Below, piece by piece: positions 19,997 to 29,450 of a stretch of DNA of 42,540 nucleotides (position 1 is the stretch's first letter; each line of letters starts with the position of its first letter). A program made the translations under genes and the position numbers. Where the stretch lies: positions 1 through 42,540 of the forward strand of contig JABIGM010000057.1 of the NCBI GenBank assembly GCA_018650165.1. Direction: 5' to 3'. This DNA comes from Methanobacteriota archaeon (lineage in GTDB: Archaea > Thermoplasmatota > Poseidoniia > Poseidoniales > Poseidoniaceae). Below the pieces are notes generated by a model. The model searched no databases. It was not told the origin of the DNA and saw only the letters and a program-made list of their open reading frames with translations.

Positions 19997-21025
19997 ATGG
20001 GCCCCCTCCACTGTATCGTCAATCCAGCCAGCAGAGACCATACTTGTGGTAAGAGGTGGCCGAATATAGTTGCAAAATTAGAGTCAAGAGGTTTTGAGAT
20101 TAATTCTTACATTACCGAGGGTGTTGGACACGCCAGCGAACTTGCTTGGAAATTACGAAATGACAATGTTGAGGGTTTGATTGTTGCAGTCGGTGGCGAC
20201 GGAACCGTTCACGAGGTTGCTAGTGCTTTACGCGGGGGAGATATTCCAATGGGGATTTTACCATTTGGTTCTGGTAATGATTATGCTATAACCCAAGGAA
20301 TTTCTCGAAAGAATCTCGATTTGGCGATTGATGTATTGGCCAATGGAGTGGACCGTAGGTGCGCAGCATGGCGCTTGGAAGGGTTTCCTGCAACTAATGC
20401 TGGAGATTACCCCTCTCCTAAACCCAATGAATGGGACGGTGAAGCTAAGGATAAAGGAAGAGTCGTCAGGTGGGTATTTCTTGAATCCGATGCAGGGATT
20501 ACCAGTGCAATATCACGAGCAAAACTGTATCGTGCAAAATGGATTAAAGGTGGGAAAAAATACACTTACCTTGGAATCACAACAATTCCCTTTTGGCAGC
20601 GTCGAAAAGTTTGGCTCAAATTGGATGATGCCGAAGGACAAATTCTTGATTTTACTATGTTTGCTGCAACAACCGGGGAAACATTTGGTGGCGGATACCA
20701 GGTTTGCCCGGGTGTAACTCCTGTTGATGAAAGTGGGACAATTGTATATGCGCCACGCCTTTCAAGAATTGCAATGTTATCATTGATGGGGCCAATGAAG
20801 AAAGGAAAACACATCGGAAAGTGGGGGATCACTCAACAAAAAGCCAATCGTATAGAAATTAAGCCAGTAGATAAGGATGGTAATATCAGTGAATCACCAT
20901 TGGACCTATCAACATGGGTCCAAGCAGATGGAGAGCCGGTTATTGTAAGCCCTGCAACGCTGGAATGGCACACAGAACAATTACTCGTTAGAGGAGCAGT
21001 AGATGTTCCTTGGGCTTCAGAATGA
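19997..21025 (+). CDS. Diacylglycerol/lipid kinase family protein (YegS/DAGK-like)
   Basis: IVNPAS, VGGDGTVHEV, LPFGSGNDYA, FGGG, QADGEP. Confidence 0.9.
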   Translation: MGPLHCIVNPASRDHTCGKRWPNIVAKLESRGFEINSYITEGVGHASELAWKLRNDNVEGLIVAVGGDGTVHEVASALRGGDIPMGILPFGSGNDYAITQGISRKNLDLAIDVLANGVDRRCAAWRLEGFPATNAGDYPSPKPNEWDGEAKDKGRVVRWVFLESDAGITSAISRAKLYRAKWIKGGKKYTYLGITTIPFWQRRKVWLKLDDAEGQILDFTMFAATTGETFGGGYQVCPGVTPVDESGTIVYAPRLSRIAMLSLMGPMKKGKHIGKWGITQQKANRIEIKPVDKDGNISESPLDLSTWVQADGEPVIVSPATLEWHTEQLLVRGAVDVPWASE

Positions 21026-22378
21026 GAAATCACTGAAATCATCATCGTTAGCAATTGATGCTGATTTGTTTTGAGATACAGGGGCAGGTTCCGTTTCGAC
21101 TTCAGGTTCAGATTTCACAGCCCTCTTCTTAACAGAACGACGCTTTACCGGTTTATTTGCAGGAGCAGAGGCCGGTTTGGAAGTTTGAGTTCCTCTAGCA
21201 GAAGTTGAGAAATGGCTGCGACTTTGAGATGGTTCGGGCTGTGTTGAAACAACATTTCCAGAGGGCATAGGTCCTTTTTGCACCGGTTGGCTGCTGACCA
21301 CCGGTTGCGATTGCATTTGTTTGGCCCCACTTGCCACCACTACTGAGCCGCCACCGAATGTCTTTGGTGCCTCATCCTTATCCCCGGATGCCAAAACACT
21401 GTCTAGGCTGAAACCAGAGATCGCAATTTCATCTTCAGATTTCTTTTTTGGAGGTGGACTGCTCTTACGCTCTTTTGCAGCACGTTCTGTCGAACTTTCC
21501 AACCCTTCTTTCTTAGAAGATTTCAAGTCCTTCTTCATTTGAATAACCTTTGCCAATCCTTCTCTGCCAAGTAATGTCTCAGCAGTAGCTTTTGCTCCTT
21601 GACGAATAATCATTGTAGAGAGTATGAATAGTCCTACTCCGCCGCCTCCGGCAACAACTAGGAAGAACATTACGAATGACCATCTACCAAAAAAATCAGT
21701 ATCTCCAAGGTAGTATTCGTCATCATTTTCACCATCTAAACTTACAATTCCTTCAGCGGTTTTAATATTCGTGATGACCATTCCATGGCCCTGTCCTACA
21801 ACTACACAATTTTCATCAATTTCAGTTGTGCCAGCATCCATAATATATCCACTTAATTCGATAGGTTGGTGCCAATGCTCCAAAACATTGAGCCCATCAG
21901 CAATATTTTCTGAGCCAGGCACGATTCCGATAACAGCCCAATCATCTTCATTTGTTGATATTTTTGACCCAACAGCTTCGACAGGCATTGTAGGAGAATC
22001 CCAGTTTTTTAGATTAACTCTAGCAGCGGAGCCTTCTTCGATCGCTTCGGCATCACTCCATTTCATTTTGTCAATTATTACTGCGGCACCCATTGCAGAC
22101 TCAACATCATTGAGAGCCGGGTGTTCACTATACACTCTCGAAGTGATTAGCATTCCTGTGACTTTAATTTTTGAATTTTCAACTCCACACCCAATCAGTG
22201 AAACTTCCTCGTCATAGCCATCACCTAATTTTGATTGGATATGTGCTTTATCATCATCAATTTCAACTTGGAGTTGACCGTCCTCGCCCCCCCATTCTGG
22301 CGTAGAGGCATAGATACAACCTGCCATGAACATGAGTAGGACCAGCAGCATCGCTAGTGGTGCTCGTGTGCGGGCCAT
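21017..22378 (-). CDS. Putative lipoprotein with an additional TM helix and low-complexity cytoplasmic tail
   Basis: MARTRAPLAMLLVLLMFMAGC lipobox-like signal; internal TM WSFVMFFLVVAGGGGVGLFIL; K/S/P-rich tail ending DDDFSDFSF. Confidence 0.7.
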   Translation of the reverse strand: MARTRAPLAMLLVLLMFMAGCIYASTPEWGGEDGQLQVEIDDDKAHIQSKLGDGYDEEVSLIGCGVENSKIKVTGMLITSRVYSEHPALNDVESAMGAAVIIDKMKWSDAEAIEEGSAARVNLKNWDSPTMPVEAVGSKISTNEDDWAVIGIVPGSENIADGLNVLEHWHQPIELSGYIMDAGTTEIDENCVVVGQGHGMVITNIKTAEGIVSLDGENDDEYYLGDTDFFGRWSFVMFFLVVAGGGGVGLFILSTMIIRQGAKATAETLLGREGLAKVIQMKKDLKSSKKEGLESSTERAAKERKSSPPPKKKSEDEIAISGFSLDSVLASGDKDEAPKTFGGGSVVVASGAKQMQSQPVVSSQPVQKGPMPSGNVVSTQPEPSQSRSHFSTSARGTQTSKPASAPANKPVKRRSVKKRAVKSEPEVETEPAPVSQNKSASIANDDDFSDFSF

Positions 22379-22448
22379 GAGGTGCCTACGGCACCTTGAG
22401 TTGTTGAACCCTTTCCTACGATTCACCTATCGGTAAGATAAATTGAAG

Positions 22449-22574: not shown

Positions 22575-24320
22575 CTATTCCTCTCTGCTAATGGCAATAA
22601 TCGCTAGACTAAGGCTTGTAGCAACGGTTGCAAAGGCGAATCCCGGTAAGCCAGAACCTTCGTCCTTTGGATCATTAACCGAGTTCGCAGCTCTTTCAAT
22701 ATCTTCGACAAAATCATTTACATCCCAATCATATCCAATGAATACGACCAATGGCTCCCAGTCATCATTAAGAATAAACGTCTGAGTAGAGTGAGAGGTA
22801 GTTGTTTCATTTTCTTGTTCGTCATGCTCCATTACTGGCGACATTAGAGTAGTAGAATCTTCACCATCTGCAATCCATGCATAGTGGTTAGCATCTTCCA
22901 TCAAAATACTATCAGATGCAGAATCTGATGTCGACATCCAATGGCTATAATCGCCCATGTCGTGCCAAATGTAGAGGTTATATTCTGCTTCAATTCCATT
23001 GATTGAAGTGACTGTACCGTTTTCCATTTCATGCGAGATATCATTTTGATTTAGCGCGGTCATTGTATGCTCCATAGCACTAACTTCGCCCATCCCAGAA
23101 TAAGTTCCATTGAATATTGCGGTATTTCCACCGGGATAGATTACTCCCAATTTGTGAGTCATCTCTCCAGACATAGACATCTGTGGGGGCGGAATCATGG
23201 AATCCATTGTCGAATTTGGAGCCCAAGCAATATGCTCCTGTTCATGCAGATTATCCATACTAGATTCACTGTTCGCCCAAGATTCATTGTTCACGTCCCA
23301 GTAATGCAATTGCCACCACCATGACGAATCATTTGGTTCGCTAACACCAGCAATAGTAGACATATTATGGCCAGATTCAGAATTTGGGGCATCAAATGAT
23401 TCTAGGGCAGCTAAGGACATATGCCATGCGTTGATGTGAGTAAGAGTTGAAGACACATTAGTTCCATCTTCTTGAATAATTACAAAGGATTCATTTTCCA
23501 TATCAGGCATTGGAATAAGTGAATCATCGGATATGTTTGGAGCGAATGCCAGATTACCGGCATCTACGGAATCGATTCCACTAAGACTTTCTTCCCACAT
23601 GTGACTAGACATATTCCATGTATGTAATTGCCACCACCATGAATTGTCAGATGGGGTCTCATCTCCATTAATTCCTGTAATATAGTGCCCCCATTCACTT
23701 TCGGTCGAATTAATCGTCCAATTATTTTCAAATTCTGCTGCAACTAGTTGGTCCCACCCAGTAGGCATAACGGGGTAGACACTCTGACTTCCGTCAGGCA
23801 TTATTACAGAAACAGAAGATTCGACTTCGTTGTATTCCATGCTATGATTCTCCATCTCTTCATGGTCATGTGACTGAACTTCTTCAGTTACAACAGAAAT
23901 TTGGAAATCAGCCCAGACCTGTTCAAGGTCTACTAATTCGCCAGTTAGGTGGGGCCACGTTGCTCCAAAATTATCCATGTATGTTTTGAAAACTTCTGGT
24001 GAATCAGTAGCGGGGTCAACAGTAATTGAAATGAATTGGTAATCAATATCATCTAATTGTTTTTCAGCTTGAACGAGATTGTTAGTAATCGCTGGGCAAA
24101 CATCGACACAGGTCGTAAAAACAAAAGCGACTACAGTGACATCAGCATTCCCTTTTTGCATCGAATATGGGTTACCATCCTGGTCGATAAGTACTCTATT
24201 CGGAATCGGATCTCGGTCTAGGTCATAGCCATTCCAATGAACGCCATCTCCACTAGCACTGCTTGAAGGGATGGTCGAGGCACAAAGTAGAGTGACTATG
24301 GCTACAGCGAAAAAGCGCAT
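22575..24320 (-). CDS. SCO1/SenC copper chaperone with three inserted DUF4430-like repeats and a PGF-CTERM anchor
   Basis: Signal peptide; FVFTTCVDVCP (CxxxC), ISITVDPATD, WPHLTG; C-terminal half of the Sco fold (SHSTQTFILN) resumes at aa 509; LPGF + TM + REE. Confidence 0.88.
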   Translation of the reverse strand: MRFFAVAIVTLLCASTIPSSSASGDGVHWNGYDLDRDPIPNRVLIDQDGNPYSMQKGNADVTVVAFVFTTCVDVCPAITNNLVQAEKQLDDIDYQFISITVDPATDSPEVFKTYMDNFGATWPHLTGELVDLEQVWADFQISVVTEEVQSHDHEEMENHSMEYNEVESSVSVIMPDGSQSVYPVMPTGWDQLVAAEFENNWTINSTESEWGHYITGINGDETPSDNSWWWQLHTWNMSSHMWEESLSGIDSVDAGNLAFAPNISDDSLIPMPDMENESFVIIQEDGTNVSSTLTHINAWHMSLAALESFDAPNSESGHNMSTIAGVSEPNDSSWWWQLHYWDVNNESWANSESSMDNLHEQEHIAWAPNSTMDSMIPPPQMSMSGEMTHKLGVIYPGGNTAIFNGTYSGMGEVSAMEHTMTALNQNDISHEMENGTVTSINGIEAEYNLYIWHDMGDYSHWMSTSDSASDSILMEDANHYAWIADGEDSTTLMSPVMEHDEQENETTTSHSTQTFILNDDWEPLVVFIGYDWDVNDFVEDIERAANSVNDPKDEGSGLPGFAFATVATSLSLAIIAISREE

Positions 24321-24370: not shown

Positions 24371-24775
24371 TTATTCAGTTACGTAAGAATAATCCCAATT
24401 TGGAGTGCACCAAGACGGTAGCCCATCGATTCCATCGGGGTTAGAAAGTCCAATTCCCCAAATCATCAATACAACAAACAGAACTGGGAACAGTGCAGTT
24501 CTTGTGTAAATGAAAGGGTCACCCTTCAGATGCATAAAAAATGCTGCAATACCGTACCCTTTGATAATTCCAACAATAATTAAAACTGCCCAAACAGCAC
24601 CTCTTGTGATTACTATGTCAGTACCTGGTATTGTGTCAAAGAACACTGCTGCGACTTCGAATAGTGTAAAGAACATCAGTATTAGGAAGTTCACATAGTA
24701 AACATCCTTGCCGATCATATCAGCCATTTTCTGGAAGAGTCCTGCAATTAGCCCTGTATATTTTTCCTCACTCAT
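24371..24775 (-). CDS. coxD: Cytochrome c oxidase subunit IV (prokaryotic)
   Basis: Three TM helices, FTLFEV, KGYGIAAFFMHLK; follows subunit III. Confidence 0.85.
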   Translation of the reverse strand: MSEEKYTGLIAGLFQKMADMIGKDVYYVNFLILMFFTLFEVAAVFFDTIPGTDIVITRGAVWAVLIIVGIIKGYGIAAFFMHLKGDPFIYTRTALFPVLFVVLMIWGIGLSNPDGIDGLPSWCTPNWDYSYVTE

Positions 24776-24784
24776 ATTATCGCC

Positions 24785-26149
24785 TCAGTACAGATAGAAT
24801 GCTGGGAAGATGGCCACCCAAGCCAAATCCACGAAGTGCCAATACAAACCGAAGTATTCGATTCCACGACCATTATTTTCATCATAGCCCACAGTATCAG
24901 CCTTGAATACCATGAATAGCATAACTAGTAGCCCAATGAATACGTGGAGCCCGTGAGCACCAGTTGCCACATAGAAGATAGAACCGGCTTGACTATCAAT
25001 GGTAAATCCTTCAGCGATTAGATGGCTCCATTCAACCAATTTCAAGACTATGAACAGTGAACCTAGTGCAATAGTAATCAGTAGGTAATTGCGAACAGCT
25101 TTCTTTCTTGAAGGGAATAGTTTTGCTAACAGAGCATTCTTCGAAGGCTCCCAATTTACATTCTTAGCAGTCTTAAGGGCAAGCACGATTGTGTATGAAG
25201 ATATAATCAGAGCAAAAGTATTGATTGCTCCGGGTAGTAAAGTCATAATGTCACCACGAAGTAAATCCGAAGCAGTAGTTGTGTCTACATCACTACACTT
25301 TCCAGCATCTACTGCCCATTGAGTACACCATCCTGTTCTCATTCTTAGGTAAGATGAGAAGAAGGATGCGAAGACCATCATCTCAGAGATAAGGAAAATC
25401 CACATTCCGGCTTTACGAATATCTTGGCCTTCAAATGGATGCGATGTGGCTACTTGTTCAGGGTGTCCTTTCAGATCCTCATTCCACCAGTTACCAATTC
25501 CCATTATCAAAAGAATTGTACCAAATCCAGATAATGCAAATCCAGACAAATCAGCATCATAATCCAAACCTAACCATGCTTTGCAGGTCGTAACAAATCC
25601 AGGGAATCCCATCATGAAGAATAAAATTCCACCAGCCATCATAATCGGTGAGGCTGAACCATGATGTTCTTCGTGGTCATCACCATGGTGTTCTTCTTCA
25701 TCAGGCTTGATACTATTGAAGAATCCAGCAACGCCATAAAATGCAGCGTAAACGATGAACATTACCATAATTGTCTTTCCTGCAGTACTCCAAGTTAGGT
25801 ATGATAGATGCGCATCTACTTGATGATGATGCGCATCATCAGCGACTTGAGTTGCTTCGTCTGATGCAGCTTTAGATTCTAGGTACTCCTCATACAAGGC
25901 ACCCTCTTCTTGGCTACCATTATTTTCCCAGCGACTTTCTGCGAATTTGAATTCTTCTAGTGCCAAATCAGCAGCATTCTTTGCAGCCTCGTATTCCTCA
26001 TTCGCATCATCCCAATCTTGATGCATCATCGAGCCTATTCCTCCGGCCATTACACCGTATGCAAGGACACCAACAACTAGTAGGCCAACTGCAATTACAA
26101 CAGTTCTCATCCAGATGCTATTCTTAACATCGTGCAAGCTTCCGCTCAT
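24785..26149 (-). CDS. coxC: Cytochrome c oxidase subunit III with N-terminal extension
   Basis: GMWIFLISE, NTFALIISS, TGAHGLHV, YWHFVDLAW; canonical start (HHGSASP...WWNED) only at about aa 162. Confidence 0.93.
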   Translation of the reverse strand: MSGSLHDVKNSIWMRTVVIAVGLLVVGVLAYGVMAGGIGSMMHQDWDDANEEYEAAKNAADLALEEFKFAESRWENNGSQEEGALYEEYLESKAASDEATQVADDAHHHQVDAHLSYLTWSTAGKTIMVMFIVYAAFYGVAGFFNSIKPDEEEHHGDDHEEHHGSASPIMMAGGILFFMMGFPGFVTTCKAWLGLDYDADLSGFALSGFGTILLIMGIGNWWNEDLKGHPEQVATSHPFEGQDIRKAGMWIFLISEMMVFASFFSSYLRMRTGWCTQWAVDAGKCSDVDTTTASDLLRGDIMTLLPGAINTFALIISSYTIVLALKTAKNVNWEPSKNALLAKLFPSRKKAVRNYLLITIALGSLFIVLKLVEWSHLIAEGFTIDSQAGSIFYVATGAHGLHVFIGLLVMLFMVFKADTVGYDENNGRGIEYFGLYWHFVDLAWVAIFPAFYLY

Positions 26150-28440
26150 GATTTCTCCTCCTTATTCCAAAGATTGCTCATCGTCCTAAACGGAGAACGC
26201 AACATTGATTCTAATTTCGACTCGTGATGAGGAGCGCCTTCGTTAGCATCTTTCTGAATTGGATTAACTGCGAACGATGGAGTCGGAGGAGGGGACGTGA
26301 CTGCCCATTCTAATGACCAACCGCCCCATGGGTCTTTTCCGACCTTTTCGCCCTTCTTTACTGAACGGATAATGTTCCAAACCAATATGAGTTGAGAGAT
26401 TCCGAATATGATTGCAAATATTGAAATCGCCATGTTCAATTCAGCAAACCCTGAATCCGCAGCATAGGTATGGGTTCTTCTTGGCATGCCCATAATTCCA
26501 ACTGCGTGCATTGGCCAGAAGGCCGCATTGTAAGAACAGAATGCAATCAAGAAGTGCCAAAGACCTAGGGTTTCATTCATCTTACGCCCTGTTACCTTCG
26601 GGAACCAATAGTAAATTCCTGAGAATAGTGCAAAGATAATTCCTCCAATGAATACATAGTGGAAGTGGGCAACTACGAAGTATCCGTCGTGGAATTGTGT
26701 GTCAAGTCCAGCAACAGGGAAGAACATCCCCGATAGTCCTCCTAGTGTAAATGTGATCAAGAACCCTAGTGACCAAAGTGTGTGTGTCTTGAATACCAAA
26801 CTTCCACCCCATAAAGTAGCAAGCCAGTTGAAGATCTTAACTCCGGTTGGAATCGCTACAGCCATTGTGGTAATCATGAATGCAGAACGCCATGCTGGAC
26901 TCATACCACTTGTTAGCATATGGTGCCCCCATACAATGAAACCTACTACTCCGATACCGACCATGGCATAAACCATCGAACGATATCCAAAGATAGAACG
27001 CCTTGCACTAGTGGCAAGAACTTCTGATACAATTCCGAATGCGGGAACCACAACCACGTATACCTCAGGGTGTCCGAAGAACCAGAACAAGTGCTGGAAC
27101 AAGAGAGGGTCTCCGCCTGATGTGAAGAAGGTTGTACCGATTGTAGAATCGAATAATAGGAAGAATACTCCTATGACGAATGCAGGCAGGCTAACGTATA
27201 GCATGAATACACTGATTAGAACAGACCAAGTAAATAGTGGCATTCTCATCCATCCAACACCCTTTGCTCTCATGGTAAAAGTCGTGGTAACGAAATTTAC
27301 ACCAGATAACGTAGAGGATGCTCCCAGTAAGGCAATTCCGGATATGAACGAAATCGTCCCGGCATTCGGACCATAGTCAGTACCTAGTCCTGCAAGACTG
27401 GAATATGGCGGATACATAACCCAAGTAATGTCAGCCCCTTCTCCACTCCAAACTCCAGCAAAGATAAGTGGTGCTGCTGCAACAATTATCCAGAAACCTA
27501 ACGCATTGATTCTAGGGAATGCTAGATCCTTTGCGCCTATTTGTAGAGGTAGAATATAGTTCATAAAACCAGCAATCATTGGCATTGCTGCTAAGAAAAT
27601 CATCGTAGTGCCATGTAAAGTAAAGAACGAATTGTATTCTGATTGTGATAAGAAATCGTTCTCTGGTAGTGCTAATTGTATACGGAATAGCAGTGCTAGT
27701 AATCCTCCAACTAAGAAGAAGAAGAACCCGTAAAGGAAGTATAGAATACCAACCATCTTGTGGTCGGTAGTAGTTAGCCATGGTTTGAGATAAGCCCAGA
27801 AGTTTCCTATGGAGAAATTCTCAGGGTTGCGTGTGTAGAACACCCACATACTTCCAACTAAGATTAGACCAAGGGCTAGCCCGATTACAGTCATCAAAAT
27901 AGTCAGAGCGGCAGCACTTGGAGCGGTAGGGTTCGCATTAACTCCGGATACGGTGATTTCTTCACGGTTCCAATCATCAGCATCTGACGCATCGCCATCT
28001 CCATTTACAGCATTACCATAAACGACGAAGTTTGCTACAGCTGTGTCGTCAGCGGGGGCAGTCCATTTGAATGACCAACTTCTTTGACCATTGATTTCAT
28101 TATTATGAGTTAGTCCACCATCCATTTCGGATGCGCCATCAAGCGATTCAAGAGTTCCGACTCCATCTTCAACGAATATTCTGAATCCACCATTTTGGTC
28201 AGGATTATCAATAGGAACCTTTTCATTAGAAATTGTTAATGTGAAAAGGAATTCTTCTGAAGCATTGAATACTTCAGGAAGCCCATCGATAGTAATTACA
28301 GTATCATCGGTCATACCTCCGTGGCACAGGCAGCCGGAAGGTTCTACATTGCCAATTCCATTCTGTCTTGCTTCAAAAGATGACGTGGATGCTAAAGCAA
28401 CCAATAGTAGGGCGAGAATCGCAACGGTTCGTCCTTTCAT
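26146..28440 (-). CDS. coxA: Heme-copper oxidase subunit I, type A1, with N-terminal extracytoplasmic domain
   Basis: TLHGTTM, KDLAFPRIN (D channel), GHPEVY, WGHHM, PTGVKIF (K channel), VAHFHYV; about 220 extra N-terminal residues. Confidence 0.97.
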   Translation of the reverse strand: MKGRTVAILALLLVALASTSSFEARQNGIGNVEPSGCLCHGGMTDDTVITIDGLPEVFNASEEFLFTLTISNEKVPIDNPDQNGGFRIFVEDGVGTLESLDGASEMDGGLTHNNEINGQRSWSFKWTAPADDTAVANFVVYGNAVNGDGDASDADDWNREEITVSGVNANPTAPSAAALTILMTVIGLALGLILVGSMWVFYTRNPENFSIGNFWAYLKPWLTTTDHKMVGILYFLYGFFFFLVGGLLALLFRIQLALPENDFLSQSEYNSFFTLHGTTMIFLAAMPMIAGFMNYILPLQIGAKDLAFPRINALGFWIIVAAAPLIFAGVWSGEGADITWVMYPPYSSLAGLGTDYGPNAGTISFISGIALLGASSTLSGVNFVTTTFTMRAKGVGWMRMPLFTWSVLISVFMLYVSLPAFVIGVFFLLFDSTIGTTFFTSGGDPLLFQHLFWFFGHPEVYVVVVPAFGIVSEVLATSARRSIFGYRSMVYAMVGIGVVGFIVWGHHMLTSGMSPAWRSAFMITTMAVAIPTGVKIFNWLATLWGGSLVFKTHTLWSLGFLITFTLGGLSGMFFPVAGLDTQFHDGYFVVAHFHYVFIGGIIFALFSGIYYWFPKVTGRKMNETLGLWHFLIAFCSYNAAFWPMHAVGIMGMPRRTHTYAADSGFAELNMAISIFAIIFGISQLILVWNIIRSVKKGEKVGKDPWGGWSLEWAVTSPPPTPSFAVNPIQKDANEGAPHHESKLESMLRSPFRTMSNLWNKEEKS

Positions 28441-29450
28441 ACTAATTCCCCTCCATGGTCAAAGTAGACGCCGAAGTCAGCATCGCAAGTCATACCCTCT
28501 CTAGCAACAACTTCGACTTGTCCATTCATGACAGAGTGTTGTTGGCCACAGTATTCTGCACATCGGATTGGGAATACACCTGCATCATTTGGCTGAACAT
28601 ACATCCAAGTTCCACCTTCTAGTCCCGGGACAGCATCTTCCTTCATGCCCCATTCTTGGAGCCAGAAAGCGTGTTGAACGCCTTGGTATACATTTGATTC
28701 ATTGAACTCGGAATCTCTTATCGGATTGTTACTATGTATGTTGAACATTACATTGATGTCGCACGGGATGATTAGATCTCCGCTCAACTTGTGCTCAACT
28801 GGAATGTGCTGCCAGCGATGTAATACATTCCCTTCTGCATCCAAAATATCCACGGATTGGAATATGAATTCGTTGAACAAAACATCCATTGTTGAATTAT
28901 TGGCCAAGTCCAGATTTTCGGAATTTAAACCGTAGGTTACCGCAGCGGTAGTTGCGCCGGACCCAGCATCAATAGAAAGGCCAGTAAAGGCATCCCAGGT
29001 TACGTTATGACCGGTATCCATGTCCTCCCATGTCAAAGCATCTTGGTAATAGAAATCCCAGTACCATTGTAATCCATTTACTTCAACAGTGAAGGTATCT
29101 TCTTCATATTCTGGATCCAACATGTTCTGTACATCTCCCCAAACAATATTCATTGAACCGAAAGCGAGTATTGTAACCCAAATCACTAGAATGGTTGGTC
29201 CAGCGAACCAAACGAGTTCGAGGTTGAAATCATGGCGTTCTTTCGGGAAAGTACCAACCACCAACCGTTCCTCGTCACTTGTGACCATCTTGTCGATTTT
29301 TGGGTCGACGCCTTCACGGTAACGCAGGATTGCAATTAGCAACCATGCAAACGTGAAGAGACCGACTAATATCGACCAAAACATAAATTTGTCATACAGT
29401 ATATTGAACACCGTATATTCGTCTGGCCACAACTCACGGTCAGCGCCCAT
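28437..29450 (-). CDS. coxB: Cytochrome c oxidase subunit II (CuA)
   Basis: Two TM helices with LELVW, QWYW, QHAFW, CAEYCGQQHSVM; ATGA overlap with subunit I. Confidence 0.95.
   Translation of the reverse strand: MGADRELWPDEYTVFNILYDKFMFWSILVGLFTFAWLLIAILRYREGVDPKIDKMVTSDEERLVVGTFPKERHDFNLELVWFAGPTILVIWVTILAFGSMNIVWGDVQNMLDPEYEEDTFTVEVNGLQWYWDFYYQDALTWEDMDTGHNVTWDAFTGLSIDAGSGATTAAVTYGLNSENLDLANNSTMDVLFNEFIFQSVDILDAEGNVLHRWQHIPVEHKLSGDLIIPCDINVMFNIHSNNPIRDSEFNESNVYQGVQHAFWLQEWGMKEDAVPGLEGGTWMYVQPNDAGVFPIRCAEYCGQQHSVMNGQVEVVAREGMTCDADFGVYFDHGGELV

Follow-up and report, generated by a model that had tools for sequence, protein, structure and literature searches.

The locus and its Sco protein

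The stretch of DNA considered here (the window, 42,540 nucleotides from an uncultured Methanobacteriota archaeon of the family Poseidoniaceae, order Poseidoniales) carries a haem-copper oxidase operon that includes the gene for a Sco copper chaperone of unusual construction. The encoded protein has the thioredoxin fold of a Sco protein in two separate pieces. Between them lies an insert of about 360 residues, consisting of a His-rich linker of 21 residues, three beta-grasp domains (R1, R2, and R3) and an acidic linker of 14 residues. It is very probable that the whole of this anatomy is correct, that is, that a Sco fold carries the insert on the hairpin bearing its copper-ligand His. The features are collected in Table 1. 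In the databases the protein is named simply "SCO family protein", and its full length has no match in NCBIfam. A protein search returned 109 homologs, and relatives are encoded on 449 genome contigs. Figures for conservation given below refer to an alignment of 88 of these homologs.

Table 1. Positions in the window of the divided Sco gene, the parts of its product and the genes beside it.
Feature	Residues	Position	Strand	Basis
Divided Sco gene	581 plus stop	22575..24320	(-)	Open reading frame, Pfam, homolog search
Sco thioredoxin fold, N-terminal part, ending with first hairpin strand (143-148)	27-146	23883..24242	(-)	PF02630, PDB Sco sequence matches, VIA-align
CxxxC copper/redox motif, C71-V-D-V-C75	71-75	24096..24110	(-)	Both Cys invariant in 88 homologs
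N-side linker, His/Met/acid-rich, predicted disordered	147-167	23820..23882	(-)	pLDDT <50 over 147-166
R1, transcobalamin-like SLBB/DUF4430 beta-grasp domain with SWWWQLHTWN strand	168-272	23505..23819	(-)	AlphaFold2 model of module, fold searches
R2, second SLBB/DUF4430-like domain, ending in conserved AWAPNST.DS.IP.P linker	273-384	23169..23504	(-)	Identity to R1, profile
R3, divergent third SLBB-like domain, three-module clade only	385-492	22845..23168	(-)	Identity to R1, profile, tree
R3 motif W-H-D-M-G-x-x-S-H-W-M, beta3-beta4 hairpin, candidate Cu(I) site	452-462	22935..22967	(-)	Conservation; binding putative
C-side acidic linker (14 residues), 36% Asp+Glu	493-506	22803..22844	(-)	pLDDT <50 over 498-507
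Sco fold, C-terminal part: second hairpin strand, H510, STQTFILN strand, final helix	507-548	22677..22802	(-)	VIA-align, paralog alignment
H510, third copper ligand	510	22791..22793	(-)	Invariant in 88 homologs; aligns to canonical His of unsplit paralog
Signal peptide	1-23	24252..24320	(-)	Hydrophobic helix 2-15, then SSSAS; predicted cleavage site
Probable C-terminal anchor	556-581	22578..22655	(-)	PGF motif, hydrophobic helix, short charged tail
cox2 (28437-29450), cox1 (26146-28440), cox3 (24785-26149), cox4 (24371-24775)		24371..29450	(-)	Upstream of sco; Pfam
Downstream gene	469	21017..22426	(-)	Same strand as sco in 75/80 loci

A Sco fold in two pieces

The N-terminal piece is easily recognized. 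The Pfam family SCO1-SenC (PF02630) matches residues 44-160 (E 1e-21; 77.7 bits against a cut-off of 22.8 bits) over profile positions 6-122 of 134, and it matches all 88 homologs as well. In sequence searches of the PDB, Sco proteins match residues 45-136 only, and the C-terminal 51 residues searched alone gave nothing beyond chance matches to poxvirus uracil-DNA glycosylase (E 0.17-1.3). Judged by sequence searches alone, the C-terminal quarter of a normal Sco protein seems to be absent.

Two other approaches place that quarter beyond the insert. One is alignment with an unsplit paralog of 200 residues encoded in the same genome, which falls into two collinear pieces (query 4-155 with subject 8-156, and query 493-542 with subject 145-194) and sets H510 against the His of T-V-A-H-T-S-P-T-Y-I-L-D in the paralog. 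The other is an AlphaFold2 model built on the 88-homolog alignment. Its mean predicted local distance difference test score (pLDDT) is 78.8 and its predicted template-modelling score (pTM) is 0.41, with confidence low only in the signal peptide, residues 147-166, 381-385, and 498-507, and the segment before the anchor. Superposed with VIA-align, the model matches copper-bound Arabidopsis Sco1 (6n5u) with Z 21.4 over 157 of 161 residues at a root-mean-square deviation (rmsd) of 1.9 Å, using model residues 37 to 548. Human SCO1 (Z 21.1), Bacillus anthracis Sco (20.7) and copper-bound yeast Sco1 (20.1) follow. Overall, the Sco structures, copper-bound and apo and including 1wp0, 2ggt, 4hde, and 2b7j, superpose with Z 20-21 over 155-162 residues (rmsd 1.7-2.3 Å), and across these targets the aligned model range reaches residue 545-549. 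Because the N-terminal piece amounts to no more than some 115 residues, these superpositions must include the C-terminal piece. In the model, then, residues from about 505 to 548 complete the thioredoxin fold, and the Sco domain is split rather than truncated.

Where exactly does the insert sit? The model forms the Sco-specific hairpin from strands 143-148 and 505-510. Therefore, the insert leaves and re-enters at the hairpin tip, 4-5 residues before the His ligand. In Sco proteins this hairpin is solvent-exposed and bears the His ligand, is disordered in the apo form and orders on metal binding; it is the element that changes most when copper binds, and it probably modulates interactions with partners (PMC7558416, a review of bacterial copper homeostasis). 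A preliminary description of this DNA had the Sco fold run to about residue 145 and resume at about residue 509, with the insertion in the His-bearing loop and H510 as the third copper ligand. The superposition, the hairpin strands of the model and the paralog alignment bear out each of these points, and every motif that it quoted is present in the translation at the residues given.

Conservation is a third, independent line of evidence that the C-terminal piece belongs to the Sco domain. H510 is invariant, as are T514, I516, P523, G529, and W532 in the same C-terminal piece. In the WPHLTG stretch of the N-terminal piece W122, P123, H124, L125, and T126 are invariant, and G127 is not. Two other His residues, H150 and H152, lie in a stretch that the Pfam alignment enters and were considered as the true ligand. 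However, neither is invariant, whereas H510 is and stands on the canonical strand. Judged from sequence, the Cys71/Cys75/His510 copper site is intact on a complete thioredoxin fold.

The protein therefore shares with Sco1, SenC, and PrrC (PF02630; B. subtilis Sco 1xzo, human SCO1 1wp0/2ggt, Arabidopsis Sco1 6n5u) the thioredoxin fold with a CxxxC motif and a distal hairpin His. It is likewise extracytoplasmic, encoded with aa3-type oxidase genes and, if its probable anchor is real, membrane-tethered. It differs from them in the insert at the hairpin tip and in its probable anchor, which is C-terminal and of PGF type where theirs is an N-terminal transmembrane helix or a lipobox. None of the solved Sco structures that match the model has such an insert (target chains of 152-181 residues).

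The inserted modules

The preliminary description had also recognized three repeats in the insert and likened them to DUF4430 and the C-terminal domain of transcobalamin. Self-comparison of the whole protein by BLAST returned the diagonal only, and the repeats became visible when the insert was cut into segments. R1 and R2 share 41% identity over 74 residues (E 1e-21), R1 and R3 share 30% (E 3e-5), and R2 matches R3 with E 4e-4. A module profile (A2), built from 91 module copies from the window and 80 related loci, finds exactly three matches in this genome, all within the divided Sco gene (E 4e-37, 4e-33 for R2, and 9e-19 for R3). The count of three thus stands.

The family likeness shows first in the fold. 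Modelled alone, R1 reaches a pLDDT of 92.4. It is a beta-grasp domain in which the helix is followed by an additional hairpin of two strands (strands 3-8 and 14-19; helix 23-34; hairpin 38-43/46-52; strands 65-71, 76-79, and 92-96). Within the SLBB superfamily, a hairpin in this position marks the transcobalamin-like clade (PMC1796856). When R1 was compared exhaustively with 48,161 PDB representatives, the top five chains were haptocorrin (Z 8.5), the bovine and human transcobalamin beta-domains (8.2 and 8.2), intrinsic factor (7.9) and the DUF4430 protein 3u7z (7.0), and the sixth fell to Z 3.2. Foldseek gave these same proteins only, then noise.

In sequence the link is thinner. Pfam DUF4430 (PF14478) touches residues 198-229 below its gathering score (E 0.38; 11.7 against 23.8 bits), and 17 of the 88 homologs match it at E<=1 (best E 0.001), likewise below the cut-off. 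Run against PDB sequences, the module profile found 3u7z only, at E 0.66, a result that is weak alone but agrees with the fold search. The link can be made transitively. Profile A2 retrieves P0117 (E 1e-57), P0123, P0132, and P0134, in which Pfam DUF4430 scores above its cut-off (E 4e-29 to 2e-13; 3.8e-29 in the multi-repeat protein P0117). Fold search and transitive profile together make the repeats a divergent, lineage-specific branch of the DUF4430/transcobalamin-beta family, as proposed, although one that lies below the Pfam cut-off. Among 1.84 billion representative sequences the profile matches only 188 clusters.

With the beta-domains of transcobalamin, intrinsic factor and haptocorrin and with DUF4430 the modules share the beta-grasp core, the hairpin of the clade, secretion and an often tandem arrangement on surface proteins. 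Unlike them, the modules are inserted in the loop of another domain, have no toroid partner that was detected in the protein or in the neighbouring open reading frames scanned, and bear a distinctive SWWW.LH.WN strand and AWAPNST linker.

R1 and R2 are acidic domains with 6-8% Trp and neither Lys nor Arg. Four N-x-S/T sequons (N204, N236, N262, and N369) are kept in at least 70% of homologs, the last of them within the inter-module linker A-W-A-P-N-S-T-x-D-S-x-I-P-x-P. So rich in sequons, R1 and R2 fit glycosylated extracellular domains. R3 is distinguished by the motif W-H-D-M-G-x-x-S-H-W-M, each position of which named here is kept in more than 85% of three-module homologs (W452 in 56/56, H453 in 51/57, M455 in 53/59, H460 in 63/64, W461 in 56/64, and M462 in 61/64). 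In CusF the Cu(I) site consists of a His, a pair of Met and a capping Trp (PMC7558416). The W-H-D-M...H-W-M of R3, on a beta-hairpin, resembles that site in residue types only, R3 being a beta-grasp domain and CusF an OB-like barrel.

In a tree of the modules, positions 1, 2, and 3 each form one clade (support 99/91, 99/97, and 100/100), with positions 1 and 2 weakly sister and position 3 on a long branch. The copies are therefore old and orthologous by position and are not the product of recent slippage. An assembly artefact, an intein and a mobile-element insertion were also considered as the origin of the layout. These were rejected because it recurs in the 449 contigs, which come from many samples, and because the module clades are position-specific.

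Several distant relatives of the modules deserve mention. Some lie in surface proteins of Altiarchaeales, together with NosD-like beta-helices and MopE-type putative copper-binding motifs, and others in Firmicutes proteins with multiple DUF4430 domains. In a distant subgroup of the Sco homologs that has two modules (P0101-P0103) a Cys-rich EGF-like piece (C-S-G-H-G-W...C-M-C-D-D-G-Y...C, residues ~385-427) takes the place of R3.

Linkers of the insert

The preliminary description called the repeats themselves rich in His and Met. This is right only in part. R3 alone has a conserved His/Met motif, and R1 and R2 are Trp-rich with ordinary amounts of His; the His residues are concentrated in the N-side linker, the one element of the insert that is truly His-rich. 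In this protein that linker is 14% His and 38% Asp+Glu. Across the family it averages 18% His, has three or more His in 71 of 88 homologs and varies in length from 7 to 91 residues, typically with H-D-H-x-H repeats. The linkers of P0096 and P0097 are Met-rich instead (M-x-M-x-x-x-M).

Some Sco linkers also contain a mini-module of about 30 residues with two Cys (C-H-D-x-x-T-H-E-N...E-E-D-C-E-A-A-G-x-x-W), which is repeated in the ZnuA inserts described below. It is found at residues ~432-460 of P0016 and ~165-235 of P0086, both Sco homologs, and at ~279-345 of P0107.

A flexible His-rich segment beside an extracytoplasmic metal site is familiar from other proteins. One is the His-rich loop of ZnuA, and the His-rich segments of that protein are thought to recruit metal and pass it onward. 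Another is PCuAC/PcuC's C-terminal extension, which binds Cu(II) and is likewise thought to recruit it and pass it onward (PMC7558416). The present case differs in that the host is a Sco protein, the segment is combined with folded domains and the role in metal handling is putative.

The same module in ZnuA-type proteins

The protein search also returned proteins of 650-925 residues with a ZnuA domain and EF-hands, which share only the module with the Sco protein (44% identity to R1). Related giant ZnuA proteins occur in many Poseidoniales genomes; examples of 650-1012 residues are P0106-P0109, P0111, P0115, and the product of L093:6374-9172 (+). In these the ZnuA fold is split too. The N-lobe ends at about residue 135-150 and the C-lobe resumes at D-P-H-S-W-L, with about 600 residues in between that comprise His/Asp-rich runs, two-Cys mini-units, EF-hands and the module itself, once or twice. 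A gene of this kind, encoding 933 residues, heads an operon of znuA, an ABC ATPase and an ABC-3 permease, and adjoins an ArsR-type regulator and a P1B heavy-metal ATPase.

We take the canonical His-rich loop of ZnuA to lie at the position of this module insert, just before the His ligand of the D-P-H motif. Sco and ZnuA are unrelated, and yet both carry the same module and His-rich sequence in the flexible loop directly before a metal-ligand His.

Export, operon context and distribution

The divided protein is exported and is the dedicated Sco, for CuA-site assembly, of the Poseidoniales haem-copper oxidase operon. At the N-terminus the model shows the helix of residues 2-15 and a low-confidence tail. 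The C-terminal end runs G-L-P-G-F, a hydrophobic helix of 20 residues (561-580 in the model) and R-E-E, with P559 and G560 invariant and F561 nearly so. From its sequence, this end is probably a PGF-CTERM-like archaeosortase signal that holds the protein at the membrane. The genome encodes a homolog of archaeosortase A (TIGR04125; contig C37:31365-32171 (+), locus L097) that scores 89.7 bits against a cut-off of 75, which implies that PGF-CTERM sorting operates in the organism. The anchor is graded no higher than probable because the hidden Markov model (HMM) of the signal itself, in NCBIfam, matched neither the whole protein nor its C-terminal 41 residues. Pfam Exosortase_EpsH has no match in this genome, but it had none in the Haloferax control either, so that result is uninformative.

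The order cox2-cox1-cox3-cox4-sco-469-residue gene is kept wherever the contig is long enough, among 80 loci from genomes of different Poseidoniales species. Subunit II, encoded by cox2, bears the CuA motif CAEYCGQQHSVM. Lineage-specific additions are not confined to Sco, since the Pfam match to COX1 begins only at residue 230 of 764 and that to COX3 at residue 347 of 454, and the cox3 extension carries His-rich runs (HHHQVDAH, EEEHHGDDHEEHHG). The 469-residue protein encoded downstream, which has no match in Pfam or NCBIfam, may be a further oxidase-associated factor. It shows an N-terminal transmembrane segment, a large, presumably external domain, a second transmembrane segment and a tail rich in Lys, Ser and Pro. 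One locus with the typical Poseidoniales arrangement cox3-cox4-sco-469-residue gene-DAGK (L055, CAXQWT010000071.1) belongs to a metagenome-assembled genome labelled Salipiger bermudensis, an alphaproteobacterium. This label is probably a binning error in the public record.

Does the number of modules vary across Marine Group II (MGII), a question left by the preliminary description? It does, from one to three. In 79 species loci there are two modules in 63, three in 13 and one in 3, and the homologs accordingly fall into length classes of ~580, 465-500, and 365 residues, all of which retain both Sco pieces. Genome searches found two or three modules in 24 of 25 Poseidoniaceae genomes. In Thalassarchaeaceae they found one divergent module (12 of 16 genomes), in frames of ~360-400 residues that coincide with Sco matches in the genomes checked. 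One module is also present in G104, a 97% complete genome from another order of the class, where it belongs to the only Sco found. The number thus follows clades, with one module in MGIIb and the sister order, two in most of MGIIa and three in the clade of the present genome.

The divided gene is the sole PF02630 match in 10 of 39 Poseidoniaceae genomes (88-94% complete). Therefore, there the divided form has to do the job of Sco. The present genome has two extra Sco genes in tandem, both unsplit and free of any insert (200 and 192 residues; contig C34, L084:1414-2591 (-)), with lipobox-like N-termini (LLPGC and IIPGC). The second of these paralogs has the CxxxC motif and an altered His region (D-I-H-L-Q-P). 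The pair adjoins open reading frames of Fpg/Nei-like glycosylase type and of a LysE-like membrane protein, not oxidase genes. PCuAC (PF04314) was found in none of 61 Poseidoniales genomes searched; the same search matched in four reference genomes used as controls.

Possible functions of the insert

What might such an insert do? Our preferred reading, held tentatively and at somewhat less than an even chance, is that it is an extracellular appendage for the capture and hand-off of copper. The His-rich linker, together with the WHDMG..SHWM patch of R3 in three-module forms, would transiently bind Cu(II) or Cu(I) supplied by nanomolar seawater copper or by a copper exporter. As the hairpin closes, these capture sites would hand the metal to the adjacent Cys2His centre, which they could reach because the insert hangs on the very hairpin by which this site is closed. 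As for the beta-grasp modules, glycosylated and rich in Trp, they would be a stable scaffold from which the linkers project, and they might in addition find a docking place on the oxidase's remodelled outer face. Where cells have neither an outer membrane nor PCuAC, the insert would replace a separate periplasmic copper donor. The circumstantial evidence leans toward metal handling of some kind: the His-rich linker, the module in ZnuA, the His/Met/Trp motif of R3 and the failure to find PCuAC.

Several observations weigh on the other side. That the insert binds metal is something we infer from its sequence. R1 and R2 are not rich in His or Met (2-5% His), and among the residues that they conserve few are likely to be ligands. 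The forms with one or two modules, which are the commoner, lack R3 and with it the motif, so that this motif cannot account for the insert in general. The His-rich linker is short or absent in some homologs (P0014, P0070/72, P0087/89, and P0098-100). His/Asp-rich segments of low complexity also occur in cox3 of the same operon, and such segments may characterize these acidic exported proteins in general. Nor is it unusual for PCuAC to be lacking: the Bacillus subtilis control had no match either. Finally, with a pTM of 0.41, the inter-domain geometry of the model is unreliable.

Perhaps, then, the insert has no part in metal handling and is a docking or structural appendage. Its glycosylated modules would bind a protein or glycan partner, such as the enlarged external parts of cox1, cox2, and cox3, the downstream 469-residue protein or the S-layer. 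Sco would in this way be held permanently at the oxidase or lifted through the cell envelope, and the His-rich linker would be incidental low-complexity sequence. This is somewhat unlikely, but a good deal speaks for it. All oxidase subunits of the operon bear lineage-specific external additions (the COX1 match starting from residue 230 and the COX3 match from 347), and in 75 of 80 loci the gene downstream is conserved together with sco. The four conserved sequons and the Pro-rich linker between modules are typical of structural surface domains, each module position is an old orthologous clade of its own, and the module has relatives in surface proteins of generic type that carry beta-helix and CarboxypepD_reg domains. 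Moreover, the Sco hairpin is itself thought to modulate interaction with partners (PMC7558416). However, a terminus would be the natural place for a stalk or spacer, not the inside of a functional hairpin. Docking also leaves three things unexplained, namely the same module at the metal-site loop of unrelated ZnuA, the consistently His-rich sequence that flanks it and the conserved HxM...HWM motif of R3.

The fold of the modules raises another idea, that they are receptors for a soluble ligand (a corrinoid, a tetrapyrrole or haem, or organically complexed copper) and couple its scavenging to oxidase assembly. By fold and profile they belong to the transcobalamin-like SLBB clade, down to the beta-hairpin after the helix, and the prediction for this clade is that it scavenges B12, or "a distinct metabolite" in the case of archaea (PMC1796856). 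A homolog pair from Lactobacillus has been proposed to bind haem (bioRxiv 10.1101/864751), and the conserved Trp/His strand SWWW.LH.W, which looks exposed, could stack on a planar ligand. We nevertheless regard this idea as improbable. In transcobalamin and its bacterial relatives an alpha/alpha-toroid domain forms the other half of the corrinoid pocket, and Pfam detects no alpha/alpha-toroid or prenyltransferase-like family in the Sco protein or in the eight neighbouring open reading frames scanned. Nor are there ECF or CbiQ-CbiO genes nearby, and Sco has no known role with haem or corrinoids. The similarity to bona fide DUF4430 is below the Pfam cut-off, and in any case a likeness of fold does not establish a shared ligand specificity. 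For cobalamin in particular, the fold itself is the sole argument that binding might occur.

A variant joins this idea to the ZnuA parallel. In surface seawater, strong organic ligands bind nearly all of the copper and zinc in solution. What if the modules are receptors for such organically complexed trace metals, placed in the loops at the metal sites of Sco (for copper) and ZnuA (for zinc)? A chelate would dock on the modules, the adjacent His-rich linker would strip it of its metal, and the protein's own site would take the metal up. This is a long shot. If it were true, the modules would represent a new class of domain for metallophore capture, inserted in loops, and marine archaea with a single membrane would have a new means of feeding their respiratory oxidase.

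Very unlikely is a changed job for the insert-laden Sco, in which it would no longer carry copper and would serve solely to reduce the CuA cysteines as a thiol-disulfide reductase, or to sense redox state or stress, with copper delivered by unsplit paralogs. This genome does have two of these in tandem, and reductase-only roles of Sco are documented (the Thermus model, PMC7558416). However, H510, which a pure reductase would not need, is invariant together with the motif flanking it, no Sco other than the split form was found in 10 Poseidoniaceae genomes or in the 97% complete genome of the sister order, and the modelled fold is undistorted.

Significance

Neither the host family nor the inserted one is new. 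What apparently has not been described is their combination, the position of the insert, the parallel in ZnuA and the series of copy numbers. A search of the full text of open-access papers found no description of a Sco protein with a domain inserted in its His hairpin, nor of DUF4430 in a Sco protein.

Poseidoniales (Marine Group II) rank with the most abundant archaea of the surface ocean, and their cells have no outer membrane. They respire with an aa3-type oxidase that is apparently bacterial in origin (PMC9287336). How the CuA site is loaded with copper that is nanomolar and ligand-bound is a practical question for these cells, because they lack an outer membrane and no PCuAC was found in the genomes searched. 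The divided Sco amounts to a natural experiment in what the "mobile loop" of Sco will tolerate, and it is a candidate adaptation for capturing scarce copper. The occurrence of the module at the equivalent spot of ZnuA suggests that it is a reusable device for the acquisition of trace metals. Since the number of modules (one, two or three) differs by clade, ocean metagenomes would allow it to be set against the availability of copper.

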